Shown: positions 50,829 through 62,928 of the stretch, piece after piece
How the letters are laid out: every line of letters begins with the position of its first letter
Numbering within the stretch: position 1 is the first letter of the stretch
NCBI GenBank assembly: GCA_050246315.1
Contig: JBFWWG010000001.1
Span: 224,001 to 288,000, forward strand
Direction: 5' to 3'
Origin: Nitrospiraceae bacterium
Lineage (GTDB): Bacteria > Nitrospirota > Nitrospiria > Nitrospirales > Nitrospiraceae
Length of the DNA: 64,000 bases
Notes under the pieces: model-generated
What the model was told of the DNA's origin: nothing
Seen by the model: only the letters and a program-made list of their open reading frames with translations
Databases searched by the model: none
Position numbers and translations under genes: made by a program

Positions 50829-53231
50829 CTAGCGGATTGCGGCTCGTTGCAGGCGCAGGCTGTTGGCCACGACGCTGACGGAGCTGAACGCCATCGCGGC
50901 GCTCGCGAGAATCGGGCTCAGCAAAATCCCGAAGGACGGGTAGAGGATGCCGGCCGCCACCGGTATGCCGACCACGTTGTAGGCGAAGGCCCAGAACAAG
51001 TTCTGTTTCATGGTCGTCATCGTCCGTCTGGACAATTCGATGGCTGCGACCGCGCTCCGCAGATCCGACCGCATCAACGTGACGTCACTTGCTTCGATCG
51101 CGATGTCCGTACCGGTGCCGACGGCCAGTCCGACATCCGCCTGTGCCAAGGCCGGCGCGTCGTTTATTCCATCGCCCACCATTGCCACGGTCTCTCCCGC
51201 CTCCTGCAAGCGCCTGATCTCGGCCAACTTGCCTTCGGGCGAGACGCGAGCGACGACACGTTCGATCCCGGCTTCCCGAGCGACGGCCTCCGCAGTGCTC
51301 CGGTGATCGCCTGTGAGCATCGTGATGTGAAGCCCCAGCCGCCTCATCTGTTCCACGGCCATCCTCGAACTCGCCTTGATCCGGTCGGCGACCGCCATGA
51401 GGCCGGCCAACCGCCCGTCGATCGCAAGAAACATCGGCGTCTTGCCTTCATTCGCTAGACGCTCGGCCTCCTTCCGCAGTTCGTCGATCGCAACACCGGA
51501 GGCCGCCATCAAGGCTTCGTTGCCGACCAGGACGCTCAGGCCGTCGATCCTGCCCTTCGCACCCTGACCGGTTACCGCCTGGAACTCTTCGGCTCGCGTC
51601 AATTCAAGCGACTGCTCCTGGGCGTACCGGACGATCGCCTCGGCCACGGGATGCTCCGATGATCGCTCCAGTGACGCGACTAGGCGAAGCACCTCACGAT
51701 CCGACCGGGACGCGGCCTTGCTGCTCACGTAATCGGTGAGAGCCGGTTGCCCTTCCGTGATCGTGCCGGTCTTGTCCAACACCACGGTCGTCACTCCGCC
51801 GATCCGCTGCAAGGCCTCGCCCCCTTTGATCAGGATTCCGAGTTCGGCGCCTTTCCCGGTCGCCACCATGACCGCGGTCGGCACGGCGAGTCCCATCGCG
51901 CAAGGGCAGGCGATGATCAACACGGCCACGGAAGCCGCGAAGGCCCTCACCCCCGGGGCCGCCTCCGCCGCGACGAACCAGACGACGAAGGTGGCGACAG
52001 CGAGCGACAGCACCACCGGCACAAAGATCGCGCTGACGCGATCGGCCAGCTTCTGAATCGGCGCGCGCGAACTCTGCGCGTCGCGCATGACGGTGACGAT
52101 CCGGGAGAGGACGCTCGCACCGCCGACCGTCGTCGCCTGATACTGAAAGGCGCCGGTCTTGTTGATCGTCCCGCCGATCACCGCATCGCCGGCATGCTTG
52201 TCGATCGGCAGCGATTCGCCGGTGAGCATCGATTCGTCCACGGTGCTCGTCCCGGCGACGATCGTTCCGTCCACCGGAATCCGTTCGCCGGGCCGCACGA
52301 CCACCAGATCTCCGGTTTCGACCGTCTCGACCGGCACGGCCTGTTCCACCCCGTCGCGCAGGACCAGCGCGGTCTTCGGTTGCAAGGCGACCAACCGTCG
52401 GAGTGCGGCGGAGGTTTGGCGTTTCGCCCGAGCCTCCATCATATTGCCGGTCAGAATCAGCGCGATGATGAGGATCACGGCCTCGTAGTACACATCCGGG
52501 GCCACGCCGCGTTCGATGAAGAAACCCGGCGCCAGCGTCGCGCTCGCGCTGTACAGAAAGGCCCCGCCGGTGCCGACGGCGATCAACGTATTCATGTCCG
52601 CCGAATGGTGGCGGAACGCCGTCCAGGCTCGGACATAAAATTGCCGTCCCGCCCACACCATGACTCCCAGCGTCATACCGAGCAGCGCGAAGGAGAGGAC
52701 TGGCGGTTCGATGCCGTAGAGCCAGGGTATCGCCGCCCCGAGTCCCGGCGTCAGACTCTCCATGACCCATCGCATGAACGGGTCCGCAACCGGACCATGC
52801 TGGTCTGCGCCGGCCATCAAGGGCATGGACAGCACCATCGCTACCACACCGGCCAGTCCGCTCCAGATCGCCTTCCGTTTGAGCGAAACGAACTCGTCCA
52901 CCTGCGCGGAATCCCGCGCCTGCTGCTCATCCACTACCGTCAGGTCGGGCCGCGGCAGGGACGCCTGGTATCCGGTTTCATTGATTGCGGCGACGAGATC
53001 ATCCGGCGACGCGGCGGCCGGATCGAACCGGACCGCCGCGCTCTTCATCATCAGGTTGACGGAGGCCTCGATCACCCCCGGTTGTCGTTCGAGCACACGC
53101 TGCACCCTCGCTTGGCAGGCGGCGCAGGTCATGCCATCGATCGAAATCGTGATCGTTTGATGGGCCGCCGTTCCACCTTCGGAGCCGGGTTCCCTGATCT
53201 CAATCGAATGGTCCTTCAGCGCCGTTTCCAT
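50829..53231 (-). CDS. copA: Cu(I)-translocating P1B-type ATPase
   Basis: [33 protein letters not shown] and MAFSS. Confidence 0.95.
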
Positions 53232-53347
53232 GAGGAGACCTCCTTGGTGAGATCGATCCTTCGGCCCTGGGCCAGGAAGAAGTACCAGTTGATCCAAGCG
53301 ATGGCGGCAACCCCGCCGATGACGACGAGCCATTCGATCGCGCTCAT
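53216..53347 (-). CDS. 43-aa single-TM protein (resembles the N-terminus of cop-operon cupredoxin-domain proteins)
   Basis: [32 protein letters not shown]; overlaps copZ stop and copA start. Confidence 0.6.
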
Positions 53348-53562
53348 GCGACCCTCCCTGCGGGACAGACTTCGTAGCCCGCTTCCTTTACGACTTCGAC
53401 GATGTCCTTCGGTTCGATCGCACTCGGATCGTAGGTCACCCGAGCCTGTCCGACCGTCACCTCGCATACGGACAGACCCTCTAGCCGGGCTAAGGCCCTC
53501 TGGACCTGCCCCACGCAATGGCCGCAACTCATCCCCTCGATCTGAAACGTGGTCTCGATCAT
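53344..53562 (-). CDS. copZ: Copper chaperone (HMA domain)
   Basis: GMSCGHC, EAGY. Confidence 0.9.
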
Positions 53563-53662
53563 GACGTTCCTCCTTCTGTTGTTGGTCGGCTGCCTGTCTG
53601 ATGACAGGCACTGTCACCACTACAGACGGAAGAGGGTGCGGATTATTACAGTCGGGAGGGCC

Positions 53663-53677
53663 TCCCCCCTAGGGGTG
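53663..53677. promoter_or_regulatory. Possible CsoR-type operator near a -10 (TAATAAT) of copZ
   Basis: C-tract/G-tract pseudo-palindrome CCCCCCTAGGGGTG. Confidence 0.4.
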
Positions 53678-53740
53678 CCCCTCCCTGGTTAGACGGGGAT
53701 GAGGGTTGGAGCCATGTGTAGATTCGATTCAGATTCGAGT

Positions 53741-53827
53741 CAGTCCCCGCCAAGCAGAGCCCGCGTCACAACATGTCCGATAACGAACATCGCCACGAGG
53801 ATCAGTCCGGCTGGATGCATGAGCAGA
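53741..53827 (-). pseudogene. 5'-truncated copy of microprotein A, cut by a MITE
   Basis: Matches 56882-56968. Confidence 0.75.
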
Positions 53828-53829
53828 GT

Positions 53830-54105
53830 TAGCCCGCATCATGCATGGCGGTTCGTGACGAATTAGCGGAGTCGCGTCGCGAGACGGGAGCGTGGAGCCG
53901 CGAGGGAGGAAGGCGTACTTGAAACAGTATGTCGACCGACCGAGCGGCGAGCCCGCCCGCTATACCGCACTTCGTGCGAACCGGCGGCGCGTCGGGCAAC
54001 GCCCCTCTTCATTGTCGCCGCCGGAGAAACACCTTCGATTGTCAAAGCTTGTCGCAGCAGCGAATCCGCAATTGCAGTAGAACTGTTCATGAATAATGCG
54101 GGCTA
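53830..54105. mobile_element. MITE-like element (family A)
   Basis: TAGCCCGCATCATGCATGG...TTCATGAATAATGCGGGCTA; right end is the HtrA TAG. Confidence 0.75.
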
Positions 54106-55278
54106 GTAGTTGGCCCCTCTTTCCCATCTCCACCTGGGCCTAACCGGTGTGGCGGTATCAGTAAGCGGCAGGCCTGTGTGCAACTGCGACGTCACGGTGG
54201 GGATCGGACGTTCTCGCAACGTGATCGACGTGTGATGGAGTTTTCCGGCTCGCAGGAACTCGACCTCAACCTTGTCCCCGACCCGCAAGGCTTTGATCGC
54301 GTGGCTGAATTCTTCCGGCGACCGCACGAGTTTGTTCTCTATGGAAAGGACGATATCCCCGCCTAAGATCCAGGGCGTCCCCTCCACAACAATGTGCAGC
54401 CCACCACCCTGGAGCCCCGCCTCCGCCGCCGGGCTCCCCTCCTCCACCCGTTCGATGAGCCATCCCTTGCTCATGGGGAGAGAAAAGAGCGTCACCACCT
54501 GATCCGTCGGGAAGGTGCCGGTCACTCCCAACCAGGGACGTGAAACATGCCCGTTCGTCTTGAGTTCGTCGAGGACAGCTTTGGCCCGATTGATCGGGAT
54601 CGCGAATCCGATATTCTGGGCGCCTGCGATGATGGCCGTCGTGATGCCGATGACGTCGCCGTGCGAGTTCATCACCGGCCCTCCGCTGTTGCCGGGATTG
54701 ATCGGCGCCGTTGTCTGGATCATCCCGTCATTCGGTCCCGTTTTTTGTATCCCCGGGCCTCCCCATCCGCTGATGATGCCGTTTGTCAAGGTGAACCCCA
54801 GGCCGAAGGGACTGCCCACGACGAGCACCTTCTGGCCCACCTTGACTCCATCTGAATCGCCCAGGCGCACCGTAGCAAGTTGGCCCTTGACTGAGTCCAA
54901 CTTCACCACTGCCACGTCCGTTTGGGGATCAATCCCCACAAGCTCCGCGGCCACCTTCCGCCCGTCATAGAGCGTCGCGATTATGGTCGTGGCCCCGGCG
55001 ACCACATGGGCATTGGTCAACACCGTCCCCTCTCCATCCAGGATGAAGCCTGCACCGAACCCCACCCCGGAGGAACCTGTGACTCCATTCAACCCTGTCG
55101 ACGCCGTAAACAGGGACACGGTCGCAGGGGCGACCCGCTCATACAGTCGAACGGTTTGATCCTCTTCTGATAAGGCCGCCAGGATGGACGAGGGCTGGCT
55201 CGACATGATCAGGATCGTGCAGACGAGGACGCTTCGCACGGCACAGCGCCACCCGGCCGTATATGAGACTCGTGTCAT
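54103..55278 (-). CDS. HtrA/DegP-family serine protease with PDZ domain
   Basis: TNAHVV, D.AVVK, INPGNSGGP, RPWLGV. Confidence 0.92.
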   Translation of the reverse strand: MTRVSYTAGWRCAVRSVLVCTILIMSSQPSSILAALSEEDQTVRLYERVAPATVSLFTASTGLNGVTGSSGVGFGAGFILDGEGTVLTNAHVVAGATTIIATLYDGRKVAAELVGIDPQTDVAVVKLDSVKGQLATVRLGDSDGVKVGQKVLVVGSPFGLGFTLTNGIISGWGGPGIQKTGPNDGMIQTTAPINPGNSGGPVMNSHGDVIGITTAIIAGAQNIGFAIPINRAKAVLDELKTNGHVSRPWLGVTGTFPTDQVVTLFSLPMSKGWLIERVEEGSPAAEAGLQGGGLHIVVEGTPWILGGDIVLSIENKLVRSPEEFSHAIKALRVGDKVEVEFLRAGKLHHTSITLRERPIPTVTSQLHTGLPLTDTATPVRPRWRWERGANY

Positions 55279-55360
55279 TGGATTCTCCCCTCGCGCCGTC
55301 TCGCGAACAGGCCTCCGTCGGTCGGACGGCCGTCGAGAGACTTCCCTGGATTCGAACCGT

Positions 55361-55765
55361 TCATGCCATGCCGCCGACCGGCAGCGGCTCTCGTTGTCCC
55401 ACGGTCGCTGCGGAATAGACGAGGTCAAGAAACAGAAGACGGCTCAGCGGCTTGGTCAACCAGGCATAGGCGCCCAACTCCACCGCGCGCATGGACAGAT
55501 CCGTCTCAAGTCCCGAAACGATAATGACGGGCATGTGGTGGTCCTGCTCATGTACACGAGCCATCACCTCCAGGCCGTTGACACCCGGCATCTGAAAGTC
55601 GGTGACGACCACATCGAACGGTTCGGCCTTGATCCGCTTCAGTGCCTCTTCTCCGTCACAAGCCTCGCCGACGACATAGCCCTCGCCGGCAAGAAGAACT
55701 GCCATCAGTGCTCTGACATCTTCGTTGTCGTCTACGACCAAGATTCGCCTGCCTCGGTGATCCAT
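55361..55765 (-). CDS. Single-domain response regulator
   Basis: ILVVDD, DVVVTD..MP..NG, TKP. Confidence 0.88.
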   Translation of the reverse strand: MDHRGRRILVVDDNEDVRALMAVLLAGEGYVVGEACDGEEALKRIKAEPFDVVVTDFQMPGVNGLEVMARVHEQDHHMPVIIVSGLETDLSMRAVELGAYAWLTKPLSRLLFLDLVYSAATVGQREPLPVGGMA

Positions 55766-56141
55766 GCCGGCCTCCCATGAATGGGGCCTCGCTCAACAGT
55801 CAACACGAGGCCCTGTTGAAAAATAGTTGGACCGTTAACCTCCCATGCGGAGTTGGTCGCCCAACCTTCCGGTTCAAAGACACCTGCCCAATCTCCAGAA
55901 CGAGGTGCGTGCCTCAAGGCACATGCGGACTCACTGTCCTTGCCTGTCCATCAGGGCGTCACAACCTGGCCCGACCGTCTCGCCCATGTGAAGCCTTACG
56001 CTGGCTGCACCGTGCGCGGGTCACAGGGCTGGCCGGACTTCAGCACCCCGTAGGCCAATGAAAGGAGGCCCAATTCATAGAATCTCCTTGTTTACTCATT
56101 TCGCTTGTGACTGGAGCTCATGATCCACACTCGTGCTTATC

Positions 56142-56300
56142 AGCAATGGCCGTTCCACGCGCGATGCCGACAGGGATCATGACTCCAACCCATTGATCAT
56201 CCGGACCATTTATCGCCATGCTTCTCGCCACTCTGTTTGAGATAAGGAGCAGTGCCGAACGTCGGCCAGCCGTTCATTCGGCAATCGCCGACATATCGGC
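56142..56300 (-). promoter_or_regulatory. Duplicated sigma-54 promoter (56142-56157) plus UAS pair (56269-56300)
   Basis: TGGAACGGCCATTGCT; GCCGT-TCAT-TCGGC and GCCGA-CATA-TCGGC, 18 bp apart. Confidence 0.7.
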
Positions 56301-56315
56301 ACACTGCGTTTGACC

Positions 56316-56810
56316 CTAGCGGATTGCGGCTCGTTGCAGGCGCAGGCTGTCGGCCACGACGCTGACGGAGCTGAACGCCATCGCGGCGCTCGCGAGAACC
56401 GGGCTCGGCAAAATCCCGAAGGACGGGTAGAGGATGCCGGCCGCCACCGGTATGCCGGCCAGGTTGTAGGCGAAGGCCCAGAACAAGTTCTGTTTCACGA
56501 TCGTCATCGTCCGCCTGGACAACTCGATCGCGTTGGCTGTGCTCCGAAGGTCCGAGCGCATCAGCGTGACATCGCTCGCCTCGATCGCGATATCGCTGCC
56601 GGTGCTGACGGCGATCAACGTATTCCTGTCCGCCGAATGGTGGCGGAGGCCGACCATTCCCGAAGGTGGAACTGCCGCCCGGCCCAGACCATCACACCGG
56701 CTGTCATGCCCAGCAGTGCGAATGAGAGGACTCGCGGTTCGATCGCGTAGAGCCAGGGCGCGGTAGCCCGTAGCCCCGGCGCCAGGCTCTCCATGACCCA
56801 TCGCATCAAC
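56316..56810 (-). pseudogene. copA: copA pseudogene
   Basis: C-terminal copA fused to an upstream TM segment at AV(G/S)TG, with frameshifts. Confidence 0.9.
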
Positions 56811-56881
56811 GGAGGGGTGCCCCTCCCTGGTCAGACGGGGATAGGGGTTGGAGCCATGTGTAGATTCGATTCAGATTCGAG

Positions 56882-56983
56882 TCAGTCCCCGCCAAGCAGA
56901 GCCCGCGTCACAACATGTCCGATAACGAACATCGCCACGAGGATCAGTCCGGCTGGATGCATGAGCAGACTCAGGATGAACAT
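56882..56983 (-). CDS. Microprotein A, 33 aa, single TM
   Basis: MFILSLLMHPAGLILVAMFVIGHVVTRALLGGD; AAAGGAGG RBS; dedicated boxed promoter. Confidence 0.75.
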   Translation of the reverse strand: MFILSLLMHPAGLILVAMFVIGHVVTRALLGGD

Positions 56984-57018
56984 CTCTGTCTCCTCCTTTC
57001 GCTTGTCCTTGCATCTCA

Positions 57019-57062
57019 AAGGTACGCGACCGGGATGAAAACCCGGTGAAGACCCGGTGAAG
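57019..57062 (-). promoter_or_regulatory. OmpR-family boxed promoter A
   Basis: CTTCAC-N5-CTTCAC-N5-TTTCAT-N10-TACCTT. Confidence 0.8.
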
Positions 57063-57076
57063 GTGTTCCCGCCAAT

Positions 57077-57120
57077 CTTCATCGGTTCTTCACGAATTCT
57101 TCATCCGTGCCGGCTAACCT
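57077..57120 (+). promoter_or_regulatory. OmpR-family boxed promoter B
   Basis: CTTCAT-N5-CTTCAC-N5-CTTCAT-N10-TAACCT. Confidence 0.8.
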
Positions 57121-57211
57121 GCGCGCAGGCTCAACGAGAGCCCCAGCGGAGCCATGTTGGTACAGGCCCTTGAACCTGGGAACAGGAACCCGACAAGGAG
57201 ACAACGGCACG

Positions 57212-57307
57212 ATGTTCGTCCTTCTGCTTGCCCTGATCGGACTGTTTCTGCTCCTCGCATGCATGGTGGGAGTCGCGCTGTATACGGAGAACCGCAAACA
57301 ACGATGA
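57212..57307 (+). CDS. Microprotein B, 31 aa, single TM
   Basis: MFVLLLALIGLFLLLACMVGVALYTENRKQR; AAGGAG RBS. Confidence 0.7.
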   Translation: MFVLLLALIGLFLLLACMVGVALYTENRKQR

Positions 57308-57724
57308 CTACCGGTCATAATCGCCGGCCGCCTCCGGCTGATAGAGGATTTCCTCGATCCTCACCTTTTTCACCCCCGCCGGAACCTGCCATTCGATGGT
57401 ATCTCCGACTCGGTACCCCAACATGGCGGTGCCGATCGGGGCGAGCACGGAAATCTTGCTCTCCTCGATCTTGGCCTGGCTGGGAAACACCAGGGTGTAA
57501 ACCCGCTCATCTCCCGTATCGAGATCGAGCAGGCGGACCTGCGAGTTCATCGTCACCACGTCTTGTGGAATCGCTTTCGGATCCACCACGTGCGCCCGAT
57601 CGAGTTCCCGCTCCAGGCTCTGGAGATACTCGCTATTTTTCCCTTTGAACACGATCCCGACCTGCAAGAGTTCCGACAGTCGTTCAAGGTCAAAGGCGGT
57701 GATATAGATGTCTCGATGTTCCAT
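57308..57724 (-). CDS. rnk: Regulator of nucleoside diphosphate kinase (GreA/B-like)
   Basis: DVVTMNS, LVFP, ISVLAPIG.A.LG, ILYQPEAAG. Confidence 0.93.
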   Translation of the reverse strand: MEHRDIYITAFDLERLSELLQVGIVFKGKNSEYLQSLERELDRAHVVDPKAIPQDVVTMNSQVRLLDLDTGDERVYTLVFPSQAKIEESKISVLAPIGTAMLGYRVGDTIEWQVPAGVKKVRIEEILYQPEAAGDYDR

Positions 57725-57816
57725 GGTGTCACACTCCTTGTTTGACGGATGAGAGAACGCGATTTCCGACTGTACGGTGTAAGGCCGGTCCTGGCCGAGC
57801 AGCCCAAAAATTGATC

Positions 57817-57999
57817 TTACGGTCGTGAAGGGGCTTCTGGAGGGGAGTGCCTGCGACGGAGATAGGGAGAGACGTCCCCCGTGACGTTCACGGATTTCCC
57901 GACGGACGCGTGCCTCGACGACCAGATCATCCAGACCGCCGCCATGGGCAGCATCGTCGTTCCGAGAGCAGAGAGCACAATGATGGCCGACAGGGGCAT
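57817..57999 (-). CDS. Microprotein C, 60 aa, N-terminal TM
   Basis: MPLSAIIVLSALGTTMLPMAAVWMIWSS...; AGGGAG RBS. Confidence 0.65.
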   Translation of the reverse strand: MPLSAIIVLSALGTTMLPMAAVWMIWSSRHASVGKSVNVTGDVSPYLRRRHSPPEAPSRP

Positions 58000-58021
58000 G
58001 ACGTCTCCCTTTCCTCAGTCA

Positions 58022-58065
58022 ACGATACGACCGCCGGATGAAGATTGCATGAAGAACGGATGAAG
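58022..58065 (-). promoter_or_regulatory. OmpR-family boxed promoter C
   Basis: CTTCAT-N5-CTTCAT-N5-CTTCAT-N10-TATCGT. Confidence 0.8.
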
Positions 58066-58179
58066 ACTCTCTCAGGTTGCCTCGTTGATAGGTCTTGCTG
58101 CGTCATTCGTCATTCGTCCTTTATATATGTCTCGCGTTCCTCCTTTCGCATTGGCGCCCCACTCAGAAGATGAACCATT

Positions 58180-58223
58180 CTTCACGATCGGTTCACCCCT
58201 TCTTCATGCTGCACTGGTACCCT
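58180..58223 (+). promoter_or_regulatory. OmpR-family boxed promoter D
   Basis: CTTCAC-N5-GTTCAC-N5-CTTCAT-N10-TACCCT. Confidence 0.8.
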
Positions 58224-58287
58224 TTGCCTCATCAGATGACGGGCTCCATGCGATGTCCACTCCCACACAGGCCATGAGGTGAATGCG

Positions 58288-58380
58288 ATGTCCGAAACCA
58301 TCAGCTCTGGGGTCATGCTTACGCTTCTGTTGGTCGCGATGACGGTGCTGATCCTATGGGGCATGTCTCTATTGGCATAA
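58288..58380 (+). CDS. Microprotein D, 30 aa, single TM
   Basis: MSETISSGVMLTLLLVAMTVLILWGMSLLA; GAGGTGA RBS; below ORF-track cutoff. Confidence 0.7.
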   Translation: MSETISSGVMLTLLLVAMTVLILWGMSLLA

Positions 58381-58435
58381 ACAACCGACTCGCGCGCATA
58401 AGGGGATTCGCGATAGATCAAGAGAGGAGGTTCGA

Positions 58436-58528
58436 ATGATGTCAGAACTCTTAGCCAGTCTCATGCTGATCGTGACGGTGGGAGGAATGGCGCTGCTCGT
58501 CATGTGGGGCCTGTCCATCATCGTGTAG
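58436..58528 (+). CDS. Microprotein E, 30 aa, single TM, paralogue of D
   Basis: MMSELLASLMLIVTVGGMALLVMWGLSIIV; AGGAGG RBS. Confidence 0.75.
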   Translation: MMSELLASLMLIVTVGGMALLVMWGLSIIV

Positions 58529-58605
58529 TCGGCTCAGGAACGGCTCGAACAGTCGTCGATATGACCAGCCCCGTGGCATTTCATGGGCCGGCAGGAGCAC
58601 AATAG

Positions 58606-58644
58606 GGCGGAGCGCCAGTCGAAAAGTTCGACTGGCGCTCCGCC
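58606..58644 (+). other. Perfect 18-bp hairpin just before the response regulator start
   Basis: GGCGGAGCGCCAGTCGAA-AAG-TTCGACTGGCGCTCCGCC. Confidence 0.8.
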
Positions 58645-58662
58645 GGCCCGGACATCACCGCC

Positions 58663-59343
58663 ATGCGCATCCTCCTCGTCGAAGACGATACCAATCTCGC
58701 CCAGTTCGTGCAGAAGGGTCTCCGCGAGGAACGTTACGCCGTCGATTGGGCGGCCGACGGCGAAGCGGGGCTCGACCTTGCCGGCCACAATGAGTACGAC
58801 CTCCTCATTGTGGACATTCTCCTACCCAAGTTGGACGGATTGACGCTCTGCCGCCGACTCCGATCCAGCGGAGGACGGACGCCGATCCTTCTGTTGACGG
58901 CACAGGACTCCGTTCAAGACAAGGTGGCGGGGCTCGACAGCGGCGCCGACGACTACCTGACCAAGCCTTTCGCCTTCGCGGAACTCCTGGCCCGCGTGCG
59001 GGCCCTCCTTCGTCGAGGCGGCCCCCACACGCCCACGCGCTTCAAGGCGGCGGACTTGGAGCTCGATCCCGCCTCCCACCGAGTTTGGCGAGCCGGCAAG
59101 GAGATTGCGCTGACGAACAAGGAATACGCGATTCTGGACTTTCTCCTTCGGAACAAGAACCGCGTTCTGACCCGGACTGCGATCATCGAACATGTGTGGG
59201 ATATCAGCTACGATCCCATGACCAACATCGTGGACGCGCATATCCGGTCACTCCGCGTGAAGATCGATCGCGACTTTTCGCCGCAACTCATCACGACCGT
59301 GCGAGGAGCCGGCTACATGCTGGAAGCACCGGAGGATGCATGA
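58663..59343 (+). CDS. OmpR-family response regulator (CusR/CzcR-like)
   Basis: MRILLVEDD, GADDYLTKPF, winged helix VDAHIRSLR.KID, TVRG.GY. Confidence 0.95.
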   Translation: MRILLVEDDTNLAQFVQKGLREERYAVDWAADGEAGLDLAGHNEYDLLIVDILLPKLDGLTLCRRLRSSGGRTPILLLTAQDSVQDKVAGLDSGADDYLTKPFAFAELLARVRALLRRGGPHTPTRFKAADLELDPASHRVWRAGKEIALTNKEYAILDFLLRNKNRVLTRTAIIEHVWDISYDPMTNIVDAHIRSLRVKIDRDFSPQLITTVRGAGYMLEAPEDA

Positions 59344-60767
59344 CGTTCTTCCGGAACCTGATCCGTGCTTGGGCCTTGGCGCTGATTCTCGTGGTCCTGG
59401 CTATCTTCAGCGCGCTGCTCTATGGAGGGTTTGAGGTTCTGCTTCAGCGCTATGCCGACGCCAGGTTGCTGGGGCTCGCACAGACGCTGGCTGCCATTAT
59501 CGAGCAACGGCCGGATCTCCTGAGCGGCAGTCGAGAACAAGAGATCGTTCCGCTTCAGGAGACGGACACGGACGAAGCGCAGCACGAATTGCGCGAAGCG
59601 GCACACTCGATCGTCGTCCTCACCCCAGACGGTCGGATCGTCTGGCAAGGTTCCAATGTCGTGCCCCGTCCGCCGGTGAGCAGCGAGCTGCTCGAAACGA
59701 TCCGGAGCGGAAATCCCCTCTACGACACGGTTTCCACCGTCAACGGGTCGCCGGTGCGACGCCTGTCGCTCCCGATCCCTGCTCGGGGAGAGGTCCGGTA
59801 CATTCTCCAGGCCGAGGCTTCGCTCGGATTTGCGGAGCGGGCCCTCCGCAATCTCTTGGGTTTGCTCGCGATCGTGTCCGCTGCCATGATGGCCGTGGCC
59901 TGGTTGGGCAGCGGCTGGCTGGCGCGAAAGGTCTTAGGACCGATCGACGTCTTGAGCGCCACGGCGGAGACCGTCTCCGGCTCGGCGCTCGAAACCAGGT
60001 TGAACGTGGATGCTCCCTATCGGGAGTTCCATCGGTTGGCGCAGGCCTTCAATGCCATGCTGGACCGATTGCAGAAGGTTTTCGAGGGCCAGCGGCGTTT
60101 TGTGGACCATGCGGCGCATGAAATGCAAACACCTCTGACGGTCTTGCAGGGGAACATCGAGGTGGCGCTCCAGAAGGCGCGCACGGCAGAGGAATACCGC
60201 GAGGCCTTGCTGAATAACTGGGAAGAGGTCCAGCGGTTGGTCAGCCTGACTCGGTCGCTCTTGACCCTGGCCCGATTGAGCGGGGATCACTCACCCGTGC
60301 AGCCTACTTCGCTCGCGCTTGAACCGCTGCTCCGGGAACTGGTCGAGGAGCTGATGGTCCTGGCCGAAGATTACAAGCTCCAGTTGAGGCTTCAGGCTGA
60401 TCCGGTGCCTTCCATCCAAGGCGACGCCCGGTGGCTCAAGCAGGCGGTGATTAACCTCTTGCACAACGCGCTCCGCTACACGGAACCGGGCGGGCGCGTT
60501 ACGGTAAGCCTCGGGGTCCTGGGCAATGAGATCCGTATCGCGGTCGAAGATACGGGTCAGGGGATCGAATCCGATCAGTTGCCGCACCTCTTCGAGCGAT
60601 TTTATCGCACCGACCGGGCGAGGGCGCGAGATTCCGGCGGCACCGGCCTGGGCCTGCCGATCGTGAAAGAAATCATTGAGGCGCACGGCGGCCGCATCAC
60701 GGTGGAGAGCCAGGTCGGGATCGGCTCAATCTTCACGCTCTGGCTACCGGTTCCTCATCCACATTAG
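59340..60767 (+). CDS. Sensor histidine kinase (2 TM, HAMP, HisKA, HATPase)
   Basis: AAHEMQTPLT, NLLHNALRY, DTGQGI, FERFYR, GGTGLGL. Confidence 0.95.
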   Translation: MTFFRNLIRAWALALILVVLAIFSALLYGGFEVLLQRYADARLLGLAQTLAAIIEQRPDLLSGSREQEIVPLQETDTDEAQHELREAAHSIVVLTPDGRIVWQGSNVVPRPPVSSELLETIRSGNPLYDTVSTVNGSPVRRLSLPIPARGEVRYILQAEASLGFAERALRNLLGLLAIVSAAMMAVAWLGSGWLARKVLGPIDVLSATAETVSGSALETRLNVDAPYREFHRLAQAFNAMLDRLQKVFEGQRRFVDHAAHEMQTPLTVLQGNIEVALQKARTAEEYREALLNNWEEVQRLVSLTRSLLTLARLSGDHSPVQPTSLALEPLLRELVEELMVLAEDYKLQLRLQADPVPSIQGDARWLKQAVINLLHNALRYTEPGGRVTVSLGVLGNEIRIAVEDTGQGIESDQLPHLFERFYRTDRARARDSGGTGLGLPIVKEIIEAHGGRITVESQVGIGSIFTLWLPVPHPH

Positions 60768-60853
60768 ACATGACGGCTCATGACGTTCCACCTGTTGCCT
60801 GAATTGTCAAAATCAAGACATGACCCCAATCACAATCAGATGTGGCGGGCTCG
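60757..60853. mobile_element. Degenerate MITE (family A) overlapping the kinase stop
   Basis: CCACATTAGACATGACGGCTCATGACGTTCCACCTGTTGC matches the family A left arm. Confidence 0.45.
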
Positions 60854-60857
60854 TCAT

Positions 60858-61850
60858 TCAGCCCGCGTTCCTTGCCGCTCGAAGATTTGGAAAGCGCTCG
60901 CTCGCGAACAACAACACCCATGTGACGAGCACGAAGGGAAGCGTCAGCGCGGGCATGCCAAGCGGCTGCAGTGCAGCGGACACTGCCGCGAACACGAAGG
61001 GAGTGGCGATCGTGGCCACCAGCGCATAGGCCACCGATACGCTTCCCGGCATAAAAAAGACAGTACCCATGGCGACTGCGACAAGCACGCTGTTGAATCC
61101 GAACGCACCCGAGCGGATCGCAGGTTCAGCGGCGCCCATACCCCAAGCCACGAGCACCCCGCTCAGCGACCCCAACAGCGCCGCAGCACCGGCCGCCCTT
61201 GACCCGATGAACAGCCCAGCCACGAATAGAATGCCGGTAACCATGCTTTCTTGAAAGAAGACCTGAGCAATACCGTTGAAGAGGCCTTCGACGACCGACG
61301 AAGCGGTTACGACTCCCTCCACTGCCACTGTCTTGGGCAGGCCGGCGGTCGGTAGGAGACCCGTGGTCTGGAGTCGCCCAAAACGCGCCGTCGCCAGGAA
61401 GAAACACAGGGAGATGAAGACAAATGGCGCTGTGAGTGCGGGCATTTTCCAGCCCTCCAGCAGAGAAAGCATTGCCGCCATGGCGATTGTCGAGCACGCC
61501 GCCGCGAAACCGACGCACCCCCAGGTCAACGCATTCGGTTGCAGGAAGAAGAGCAAGGCGATGCCCACGAGCCCGCCATTGAAGCCGAAGAGCCCTGCCC
61601 GGACCAGCGTGCGATCGACGCCCAACAACAACGCGGTGGCCGTGCTCACCGCACCGCCGAGCAGGAGGGCGGTCCCGAACAGCAGGGAGCTGTAACACAC
61701 CCCCATGACGAAGAGCAGACCGGTATAGCTGTTGTTCTGGAGCATCACTTGGCCGATGCCGCGCAGTACGGAATCAAGAAAATCCAACAGCGAATGCGAA
61801 ACACCCTGGCCTTCTACGACGAGACCCGTCGAGGAGAATCGCGCGGCCAT
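60858..61850 (-). CDS. Urea transporter (UT/Utp family)
   Basis: GIGQVMLQNN..TG, GLFGFNG, PALTAPF, repeated as GIAQVFFQ, GAFGFN, PALTLPF. Confidence 0.92.
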   Translation of the reverse strand: MAARFSSTGLVVEGQGVSHSLLDFLDSVLRGIGQVMLQNNSYTGLLFVMGVCYSSLLFGTALLLGGAVSTATALLLGVDRTLVRAGLFGFNGGLVGIALLFFLQPNALTWGCVGFAAACSTIAMAAMLSLLEGWKMPALTAPFVFISLCFFLATARFGRLQTTGLLPTAGLPKTVAVEGVVTASSVVEGLFNGIAQVFFQESMVTGILFVAGLFIGSRAAGAAALLGSLSGVLVAWGMGAAEPAIRSGAFGFNSVLVAVAMGTVFFMPGSVSVAYALVATIATPFVFAAVSAALQPLGMPALTLPFVLVTWVLLFASERFPNLRAARNAG

Positions 61851-62217
61851 AACGTCAGAATCCCCCGTGGCCGATCTGCGCATCCGGTATGTGATGCCCA
61901 AGAGACATGCCGGTGACCTTCACGCAGTGGGATGCGAGCATGCGATTCTCCTCCATAATCAAGCTGTCAGCTCTCCGCCTAAAATCGTTGCGGCGATCAC
62001 CTACCACATCGCTTTTTTCGCGCACTGGGTGAGACTTGGACTTTCCTTGCCGGCGATGACGGCGAACGACTGAGGAGCCGCCGAGGCACTGGCCGTTCCA
62101 GCGAGCTCTCTCGTGCGGGTCCTCATCGCGAAACGCGCACAATCTGCCGGATTGTCTTGGAAACACGAGGGGGTGTCAACGTGGGCCCTGCCGGAGAACC
62201 CCGTCATCCCGGCGACC

Positions 62218-62401: not shown

Positions 62402-62404
<3 letters not shown>
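62218..62404. mobile_element. MITE-like element (family A)
   Basis: TAGCCCACATTATTCATGA...CGTGAATAATGCGGGCTA; right end is the antitoxin TAG. Confidence 0.75.

Positions 62405-62928
<524 letters not shown>

Follow-up and report, generated by a model that had tools for sequence, protein, structure and literature searches.

Promoters of the pho-box geometry carry phased direct repeats in place of the -35 element, the last repeat ending about 10 bp upstream of the -10. Single-helix proteins of about 30 to 65 residues made from regulator-activated promoters, such as MgrB, SafA, PmrR, MgtS, MgtR and KdpF, modulate kinases, lipid enzymes and P-type ATPases; those of the MgrB/SafA kind bind the sensor kinase directly and feed back on its signalling. 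The locus described here holds candidates for both. It lies in a 64,000-nt stretch of DNA from a Nitrospiraceae bacterium (assembly GCA_050246315.1, contig JBFWWG010000001.1, positions 224,001 to 288,000 of the forward strand), which was analysed whole and is called the window. It comprises four promoters with three phased TTCAY boxes each, five microproteins encoded behind them, and an adjacent gene pair for a response regulator of the OmpR/PhoB family and a sensor histidine kinase. The best explanation of the locus as a whole, and one that we hold to be likely, is a set of class II activator-dependent promoters run by the adjacent regulator and kinase. The genome of the window (4.39 Mb, 59.7% G+C) is referred to as G000, and two sister species of the same genus as G001 and G002.

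The first-pass annotation of the window did not recognise the box from any characterised system, and this has to be corrected. As far as the available parts of the reports go, the TTCAY half-site and the 11-bp period match the boxes of CopR from Corynebacterium glutamicum and PhoP from Streptomyces, and the half-site alone matches CopR from Synechocystis; box type and geometry are already known. C. glutamicum CopR binds TGAAGATTTgaTGAAGATTT between divergent copper-induced operons, and its box, TGAAGATTT-N2-TGAAGATTT, reads on the reverse complement as TCTTCA at an 11-bp period (PMC3140484, available parts). There as here an OmpR-family regulator and a kinase are encoded beside divergent target promoters, with autoregulation (predicted here) and a P-type ATPase nearby. 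The TCTTCA core and the period are common to both, whereas the flanking ATTT is not, and there are two units there and three here. The same parts of that report describe a single genomic site far upstream of one mapped start, and, in place of microproteins, a multicopper oxidase and an ATPase as targets. The putative CopR sequence of Synechocystis sp. PCC 6803, TTCATN4-5TTCAT (PMC4182526, in part), is also a TTCAT direct repeat, and its copper-responsive autoregulated operon starts with the gene of an extra protein, copM. It differs in having two repeats with a spacer of 4-5 nt, not 6 (a 9-10-bp period), in a regulon that this part of the text limits to copMRS and copBAC, and in CopM itself, which binds copper in the periplasm and is no microprotein.

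Two further systems resemble the locus in other ways. Pseudomonas aeruginosa BqsR binds TTAAG-N6-TTAAG over the -35 and its kinase BqsS needs a periplasmic RExxE, and the sections available to us also cite HExxE in Salmonella PmrB (PMC4358008). BqsRS and PmrAB thus offer 5-bp direct repeats with a 6-nt gap (an 11-bp period) and a periplasmic (R/H)ExxE, and BqsRS is described there with an autoregulated operon that opens with extra membrane genes, an output of cationic-stress tolerance and an overlap with the -35 position like the one seen here. The BqsR half-site, however, is TTAAG and not TTCAY and is repeated twice, the regulator here scores higher with CusR-type models, and ExxE is not universal among the Nitrospirales orthologues of our kinase. 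Streptomyces coelicolor PhoP binds 11-nt direct repeat GTTCAY units in two-, three- and multi-unit operators, cooperatively and near the -35 (PMC2275107, in part). It serves a phosphate regulon and has a kinase of other architecture, whereas no phosphate-uptake or scavenging genes lie behind any site examined here, which sets the system apart from a Pho regulon. More distant are UzcRS of Caulobacter crescentus and AgrR of Cupriavidus metallidurans. According to the available part of a review, 52 of the 66 genes activated by UzcRS have a signal peptide or transmembrane domain (PMC8963506), so that it too is a metal-responsive two-component regulon dominated by envelope proteins, but its motif is CATTAC-N6-TTAA, its regulon is much larger, and that part does not describe it as microprotein-centred. 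The site of AgrR, a regulator of the CopR/CusR type, is an inverted repeat to which a direct repeat is added in phase (PMC7380067, in part). A keyword search of the open-access literature, which does not prove absence, found neither a rigid three-unit box tied to a suite of membrane microproteins nor this system in Nitrospira.

Direct reading of the transcribed strands bears out the first-pass claim of four promoters of identical architecture in which 10 of the 12 boxes are perfect CTTCAY. Each of promoters A to D has three boxes at an 11-bp period, a spacer of exactly 10 nt and then TAnnnT, and a fifth promoter, E, was found elsewhere in the genome:

57062 to 57019, minus strand: promoter A, CTTCAC-cgggt-CTTCAC-cgggt-TTTCAT-N10-TACCTT, with the same architecture ahead of the orthologous peptide in G001 and G002.
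57077 to 57120, plus strand: promoter B, CTTCAT-cggtt-CTTCAC-gaatt-CTTCAT-N10-TAACCT.
58065 to 58022, minus strand: promoter C, CTTCAT-ccgtt-CTTCAT-gcaat-CTTCAT-N10-TATCGT, all three boxes perfect.
58180 to 58223, plus strand: promoter D, CTTCAC-gatcg-GTTCAC-ccctt-CTTCAT-N10-TACCCT.
G000:C1:292654, outside the window: promoter E, CTTCAT-N5-CTTCAT-N5-TCTCAT-N10-TACAGT.

The pattern YTTCAY-N5-YTTCAY-N5-YTTCAY with up to 2 mismatches has 4 matches in the window against 0.08 expected, a number that none of 100 shuffles reached, and promoters A to D are the sole sites scoring 17-18 out of 18 in the whole of G000. Promoter E, 4.6 kb past the end of the window, scores 16/18 and keeps the N10-TAnnnT geometry; with it the sites of G000 number five in all. 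The exact 10-bp spacer in all five G000 promoters, together with the lack of a -35 consensus, is that of class II promoters of the PhoB type. A consensus scan of 56000-61200 gave no sigma-70-like -35/-10 pair where 1.4 were expected, which fits activator-dependent promoters.

The design extends well beyond this genome. All five sites are kept in synteny in G002, and G001, at about 79% DNA identity to G000, keeps the five sites with their genes and has a sixth; the tally at the same-genus stage (24 of 41 genomes with the motif) takes in one unpublished genome, G009, on which nothing else here depends. For the order-wide scan, which follows a suggestion of the first-pass annotation, we used the 43-nt pattern TTCAY-N6-TTCAY-N6-TYCAY-N10-TANNNT with at most one mismatch, and the reversed pattern as control. 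The full pattern occurs in 103 of 201 Nitrospirales genomes, with 260 sites in all, against 4 matches in total for the control. Recurrence so far above the control means that the design is not due to chance, and the triple-box design is an order-wide promoter class.

Two genes next to promoter D carry the link from the boxes to a possible activator:

58663 to 59343, plus strand: response regulator of the OmpR/PhoB family (Pfam Response_reg 102.1 bits, Trans_reg_C 91 bits).
59340 to 60767, plus strand: sensor histidine kinase with two transmembrane helices flanking a periplasmic domain of about 140 residues, followed by HAMP, HisKA and HATPase_c (Pfam).

We searched for kinase orthologues with the first 207 residues, the sensor part, and called them at E < 1e-20. 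The matches are bimodal, with none at E between 1e-25 and 1e-15, and 89 genomes fall below the threshold. The motif is found in 81 of these 89 genomes, compared with 22 of the 112 without an orthologue. A second set was centred on the kinase itself and took the 80 best relatives in a species-level genome collection with 4 kb on either side (593 kb in total). Their titles all name Nitrospira, Nitrospiraceae, Nitrospirales or Nitrospirota except two, 'uncultured bacterium' and 'uncultured Nitrosospira sp.'. Of the 80 loci, 53 have one site or more at most 4 kb from the kinase, which makes 82 sites altogether, and the reversed pattern has none. The spacing is equally rigid in this set: among 104 three-box sites selected regardless of their -10, TAnnnT stands at exactly +10 in 74, while any other offset from 4 to 16 accounts for at most 7. 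Taken together, co-occurrence, physical linkage and rigid spacing make the adjacent regulator the best candidate for the activator that binds the boxes.

Membership of the regulator in the OmpR/PhoB family is clear from its domains, and its closest solved chains are DrrD, PhoP, MtrA and PrrA. Its top NCBIfam model is the heavy-metal model TIGR01387 (CusR/CopR/CzcR/SilR) at 265.2 bits, under the cut-off of 279.2, followed by CusR (245 bits), RppA and HprR, with PhoB and PmrA at about 190 bits. The top model of the kinase is TIGR01386 (CusS/CopS/CzcS), which covers residues 17-460 at 279.3 bits, under its cut-off of 292.55. Judged by these scores, the pair is most likely a Nitrospirales-wide relative of the heavy-metal CusRS/CopRS group, near it but formally outside. 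The periplasmic sensor domain has no sequence relative among solved structures in the PDB at E <= 1. Its model (from a 9-row alignment, predicted local distance difference test score 76) has a PDC/PAS-like fold, and Foldseek returned only generic PDC/PAS domains (KinD, WalK and CitA, TM-scores 0.4-0.6), so the fold does not reveal the ligand.

The first open reading frame (ORF) behind each of promoters A to D had been described as a small hydrophobic one with a good Shine-Dalgarno (SD) sequence, and this stands: they encode 33, 31, 60 and 30 residues with SD-like strings, and a fifth, again of 30 residues, follows the fourth. The comparisons listed are with the G001 orthologues, and dN/dS is the ratio of nonsynonymous to synonymous substitution rates:

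56882 to 56983, minus strand: microprotein 1, 33 residues, one hydrophobic helix, an HPA motif and the SD-like string AAGGAGGAG; 23/32 residues identical, dN/dS 0.30.
57212 to 57307, plus strand: microprotein 2, 31 residues, a single hydrophobic helix and a basic C-terminus (ENRKQR); 19/30 identical, dN/dS 0.58.
57817 to 57999, minus strand: microprotein 3, 60 residues, encoded first in the promoter C unit, with a hydrophobic helix at the N-terminus and a tail that is basic and rich in proline; 33/56 identical, dN/dS 0.37.
58288 to 58380, plus strand: microprotein 4, 30 residues, with an upstream GTG start possible at 58279; dN/dS 0.11.
58436 to 58528, plus strand: microprotein 5, 30 residues, a paralogue of microprotein 4; dN/dS 0.30.

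All five ORFs are kept in G001 in the same order, with SD, length and hydrophobic helix, so the first-pass proposal that conservation, synteny and dN/dS be examined ended in their favour. Over the 175 pooled codons dN is 0.239 and dS 0.760, a ratio of 0.31 (single ratios 0.11-0.58), and the differences by codon position number 51/30/66. Related peptides stand behind the same promoter type in other genera. Look-alikes of microprotein 1 with 'FLHPALL' occur in one of them (L098, L101); the family of microproteins 4 and 5 has an invariant WG and a near-invariant S across genera and in another genus lies ahead of a nucleotidyl transferase gene; and further families include MDANWLxFG...KKGQ and MTTxFFALLALTAVFG. 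An SD-preceded ORF of 25-65 residues with a transmembrane-like stretch lies within 130 nt downstream of 30 of 80 unique sites, against 56 of 20,000 random G000 positions, and in the kinase-centred loci such an ORF stands behind 28 of the 82 sites. Even at a permissive E-value Pfam gave no family for any of 11 microproteins, all matches being far below cut-off, and a homologue search with the 60-residue peptide returned only itself, a result limited by the word-based sensitivity of the search, as a G001 orthologue exists. The exact peptide sequences are present as unnamed gene calls in public assemblies. We consider it very probable that the peptides are real proteins. They resemble the enterobacterial small membrane proteins and KdpF in being single-helix proteins of about 30 to 65 residues behind what are here predicted regulator-dependent promoters, but enterobacterial regulons have one or two such peptides each, whereas five lie here within 1.7 kb and the families differ between genera. 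Microproteins 4 and 5 are encoded upstream of the regulator and kinase genes, in an operon context. By analogy, our guess is that the peptides might modulate membrane complexes, for example the kinase itself or transporters.

The output of the system had been given as the membrane microproteins plus Rnk. Both do lie behind the promoters, but the predicted output is wider than that: it takes in the operon of promoter E, and in the sister species copZ-copA comes after peptide 1. The Rnk gene is the second behind promoter C:

57308 to 57724, minus strand: rnk, nucleoside diphosphate kinase regulator of the GreA/GreB family (Pfam GreA_GreB, Rnk_N).

Its identity is secured by NCBIfam NF004396 (142.7 bits, cut-off 109), and Rnk is again found downstream of the promoter class in another genus (L113, L117). 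Microprotein 2 and rnk are convergent and abut at 57307/57308 with no spacer. The sole terminator-like hairpin for the peptide 2 transcript, 57344-57362 on the plus strand, lies inside the rnk coding region at its 3' end, so promoters activated by the same predicted regulator would give overlapping antisense transcripts. Promoter E precedes genes for a 313-residue nucleotidyl transferase, a protein like Fe/Mn superoxide dismutase (SOD), a 63-residue ORF with an N-terminal hydrophobic helix and a hemerythrin-domain protein; read by eye, the (V/A)A(S/A)Y-x-D motif of the 63-residue ORF recurs in small ORFs of L036 and L099.

Targets in other Nitrospirales were surveyed by a Pfam scan of 107 of 213 downstream ORFs, chosen by eye. 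Families found were NTP_transferase (5), tandem Usp (4), Rnk (2), S24/HTH repressor-like (6), BON (2), Slp (2), glycosyltransferase family 4 (2), OmpA-like (1) and AmoC (1), besides PepSY (7) and DUF2231 (6), which stand immediately ahead of regulator and kinase genes; most other ORFs had no family. The order NTP-transferase, Usp, Rnk is seen in L113 and apparently in L117, whose NTP-transferase ORF was outside the Pfam scan. The wider targets (Usp, BON, Slp, OmpA-like, PepSY) look like a general envelope or metal-stress response. In other genera the promoter may be followed by PepSY, DUF2231, regulator and kinase, and in L062 by a 31-residue transmembrane ORF, regulator and kinase. These gene orders support small membrane genes ahead of regulator and kinase behind such a promoter as a recurring operon form. 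Two loci stand apart. At L084 (G182:C1:1172238-1174080) the promoter class is followed by a 38-residue hydrophobic ORF and then a gene for AmoC, ammonia monooxygenase subunit C, which points to an additional amoC copy, inducible by stress, in a Nitrospira that oxidises ammonia. Another genus has, at L100 (G134:C1:3318795-3320637) and at L097, a promoter of the class whose middle box, CTTCAG, has one mismatch and which stands ahead of a family-4 glycosyltransferase-like gene; at L100 this gene is followed by a multi-pass membrane ORF that by eye looks like a ZIP-type metal permease.

The mechanism we propose is as follows. The three phased TTCAY boxes would stand in for the -35, with the third ending 10 bp before the TAnnnT -10. 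The activator would most likely be the phosphorylated OmpR/PhoB-family regulator encoded alongside, together with its periplasm-sensing kinase. It probably occupies the three phased units in a head-to-tail array, from which it would bring RNA polymerase to a promoter with a -10 only. Once triggered, the kinase would have the regulator turn on its own operon through promoter D, an autoregulation that the gene arrangement makes plausible, and would also turn on several single-helix membrane microproteins, Rnk and the operon of NTP-transferase, SOD-like and hemerythrin-like proteins. Read-through from promoter A would possibly bring on copZ-copA as well in the ancestral arrangement of the genus. 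As the trigger, a periplasmic metal cation or a linked envelope or redox stress is probable, copper and iron being the two leading candidates. What we infer from the sequences is that the regulator binds the boxes, where transcription starts, that the peptides are translated, which signal is sensed and what the peptides do. One further element may bear on the regulator operon:

58570 to 58645, plus strand: conserved non-coding block and hairpin between microprotein 5 and the regulator gene.

It consists of a 47-nt block that is 100% identical between G000 and G001 and, next to it in G000 and G002, a hairpin with an 18-bp stem; the region folds at -67.4 kcal/mol (z = -4.96). Block and hairpin may form a second control point, that is, a second promoter or an attenuator. 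The block contains TGGCAT-N5-GGGC, which resembles a sigma-54 -24/-12 element by eye.

Several observations weigh against this explanation or parts of it. The motif is missing in 8 of the 89 kinase-bearing genomes and present in 22 of the 112 without the kinase, several of these 22 being incomplete assemblies. The genomes are related and not independent, so the co-occurrence statistic is overstated and describes an association, not a test. TTCAY half-sites are used by several different regulators, so likeness of the box says little about the signal. Regulator and kinase both score under the curated cut-offs of the heavy-metal subfamilies. Copper genes were seen behind these promoters only in the genus of the window, and copZ-copA may have a promoter or operator of its own in the conserved spacer described below. 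Across 75 orthologues the sensor domain has no Met or Cys column at 50% or more and a single His column (H89, 64%), and the two glutamates of an ExxE motif in it are kept order-wide in only 54 and 52 of the 75. RNA-library contigs from four studies, mapped to 56000-61000, take in the peptide genes, but the divergent promoter regions are spanned as well, and neither starts nor strands nor levels can be told from contigs of this kind.

Among more specific or competing explanations, a copper-specific CopRS fares best, and we regard it as possible but tentative. Here the kinase would sense periplasmic copper, with CopZ and CopA for export, SOD and hemerythrin-type iron-centre repair for protection, and the microproteins as accessories. 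Copper is favoured because of the family resemblance (the best models being of the heavy-metal, CusR and CusS types), the half-site, which the copper regulators of C. glutamicum and Synechocystis also use in the parts of those reports cited above, and the copZ-copA neighbourhood. This neighbourhood and the 3-kb segment of G000 are taken together as copper genes and a REARRANGEMENT:

53344 to 53562, minus strand: copZ-like metallochaperone, 72 residues, directly behind microprotein 1 in G001 and G002.
50829 to 53333, minus strand: copA-like P1B-type ATPase, 834 residues.
53828 to 56813, minus strand: insert of about 3 kb, specific to this genome, that separates microprotein 1 from copZ (BLASTN against G002 and G001; Pfam).
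53740 to 53827, minus strand: truncated duplicate of microprotein 1, its 5' end missing, without start codon and promoter.

In both sister species the copZ-like chaperone and then the P1B ATPase begin about 180 nt past peptide 1, which was the ancestral order in G000 as well, and the G002 copA orthologue passes TIGR01511, the model for copper-translocating ATPases (609 bits, cut-off 397). A CsoR repressor as the controller of copZ-copA was dropped, as G000 has no PF02583 match; that no CsoR-family repressor was found in G000 counts for copper sensing by the kinase.

The copper explanation meets difficulties on the side of both the sensor and the genes. CusS-type copper and silver sensors have conserved periplasmic His/Met metal ligands, and the kinase lacks them, H89 being its sole His column and neither Met nor Cys being conserved; nor does its sensor domain have a relative among the solved structures. 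No copper or other metal-transport family was found among the 107 downstream ORFs of other Nitrospirales, which leaves copper genes behind the motif in one genus only. The spacer between peptide 1 and copZ (53563-53740; L034, L033) is better conserved over the three species than the peptide gene. In it a GC-rich hairpin, variable in its loop, is followed by TGTAATAAT and a GACAG-N3-CTGTC palindrome. The conservation of this spacer with TGTAATAAT means that copZ-copA may have an independent promoter. Finally, the insert now parts promoter A from copZ-copA in G000. It carries a 75-residue ORF, genes for an HtrA-like protease and for a regulator that consists of a receiver alone, and fragments of a second copA, divergent and 81-89% identical to the G002 gene, and is flanked by a 156-bp duplication (53672-53827 = 56814-56969) that includes the 3' part of peptide 1; its right junction, 56813/56814, is bridged by RNA-library contigs of two studies. 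The link of the two-component system to copper export is suggestive but not firm.

Sensing of iron or another hard cation in the manner of PmrAB or BqsRS appears rather unlikely, though it has points of its own. The periplasmic ExxE would bind Fe(III), Fe(II), Zn or Al, and the output would harden the envelope and limit Fenton damage. In its favour are the HExxE motif and, among the targets, SOD and hemerythrin. Kinase residues 82-86, in the periplasmic domain, read HELRE, and both glutamates are invariant in 9 closer orthologues (alignment A2). Published motifs for iron sensing are the HExxE of PmrB and the RExxE of BqsS, and the repeats bound by BqsR, 5 bp each with an 11-bp period, lie over the -35 (PMC4358008, available parts). 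Targets include the Fe/Mn-type SOD-like and hemerythrin-like proteins and, elsewhere, envelope proteins (BON, Slp and OmpA-like), with PepSY genes in the operon. Opposed to it are the incomplete retention of the glutamates order-wide, the position of HELRE in a low-confidence stretch of the sensor-domain model, and the scores of the regulator, which at 265 bits for heavy metal and 245 for CusR exceed the 190 of PmrA.

It is improbable that the micro-ORFs are non-functional as proteins, in which case the transcripts would serve as leaders, attenuators or small RNAs (one example being antisense RNA to the 3' end of rnk) and the hydrophobic frames would be incidental. Such a role would suit the microprotein 2 transcript, which must run antisense into the rnk 3' end with its terminator-like hairpin inside rnk, and it would agree with the lack of Pfam families, with the mere 19 representatives that the profile of microproteins 4 and 5 finds at E <= 0.001 among 1.84 billion proteins, and with the dN/dS of peptide 2, only 0.58. 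But frame, length, SD and hydrophobic helix are kept in every ORF at about 79% DNA identity, the codon-position differences and pooled dN/dS fit coding sequence, promoters of this type in other genera have distinct peptide families behind them, small SD-preceded ORFs with a transmembrane-like stretch are enriched more than 100-fold behind the sites over random genome positions, and 53000-61200 has no Rfam match at E <= 1. That the boxes belong instead to another OmpR/PhoB-family regulator, such as a phosphate-type PhoP/PhoB encoded elsewhere, with the adjacency coincidental, is highly improbable: several boxes here are GTTCAY, as in the 11-nt units and three-unit operators of Streptomyces PhoP (available parts of that report), and 22 genomes have the motif without the kinase, but the strong co-occurrence and linkage with the adjacent kinase, the lack of phosphate-uptake genes behind any examined site and the score of the PhoB model (190 bits against 265 for heavy metal) all speak against it.

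Beyond the regulator and kinase the window holds two further features. A urea transporter gene of the UT family (60858-61901) is convergent with the kinase gene. An ORF for a BrnT-family toxin (62655-62846, minus strand) overlaps an 87-residue partner ORF (62402-62665, minus strand), and 62402-62846 looks like a type II toxin-antitoxin pair.

Class II promoters run by the adjacent regulator and kinase, as proposed here, also allow a broader but doubtful view, drawn from the at least six or seven unrelated microprotein families seen. The main output of the system could be single-helix microproteins in a changing set, every family under a regulator-dependent promoter of its own, that insert into the membrane and retune larger complexes under metal or envelope stress. 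If this is true, the stress response would be made largely by microproteins and not by enzymes or transporters, and the complexes would be the kinase, the copper ATPase or the respiratory and nitrite-oxidising machinery. In wastewater treatment and in soils nitrite is oxidised mainly by Nitrospira, and to our knowledge almost nothing is known of their gene regulation. The analysis provides a searchable promoter motif, an assignable regulator and kinase pair, a predicted order-wide regulon and a list of unnamed conserved membrane microproteins, and the rigid triple-box promoter could also be put to use as a reporter of stress in organisms with which genetic work is difficult. Should the peptides be real effectors, the locus would be among the densest known clusters of regulated bacterial microproteins, and a tractable entry into their role in metal and envelope stress.

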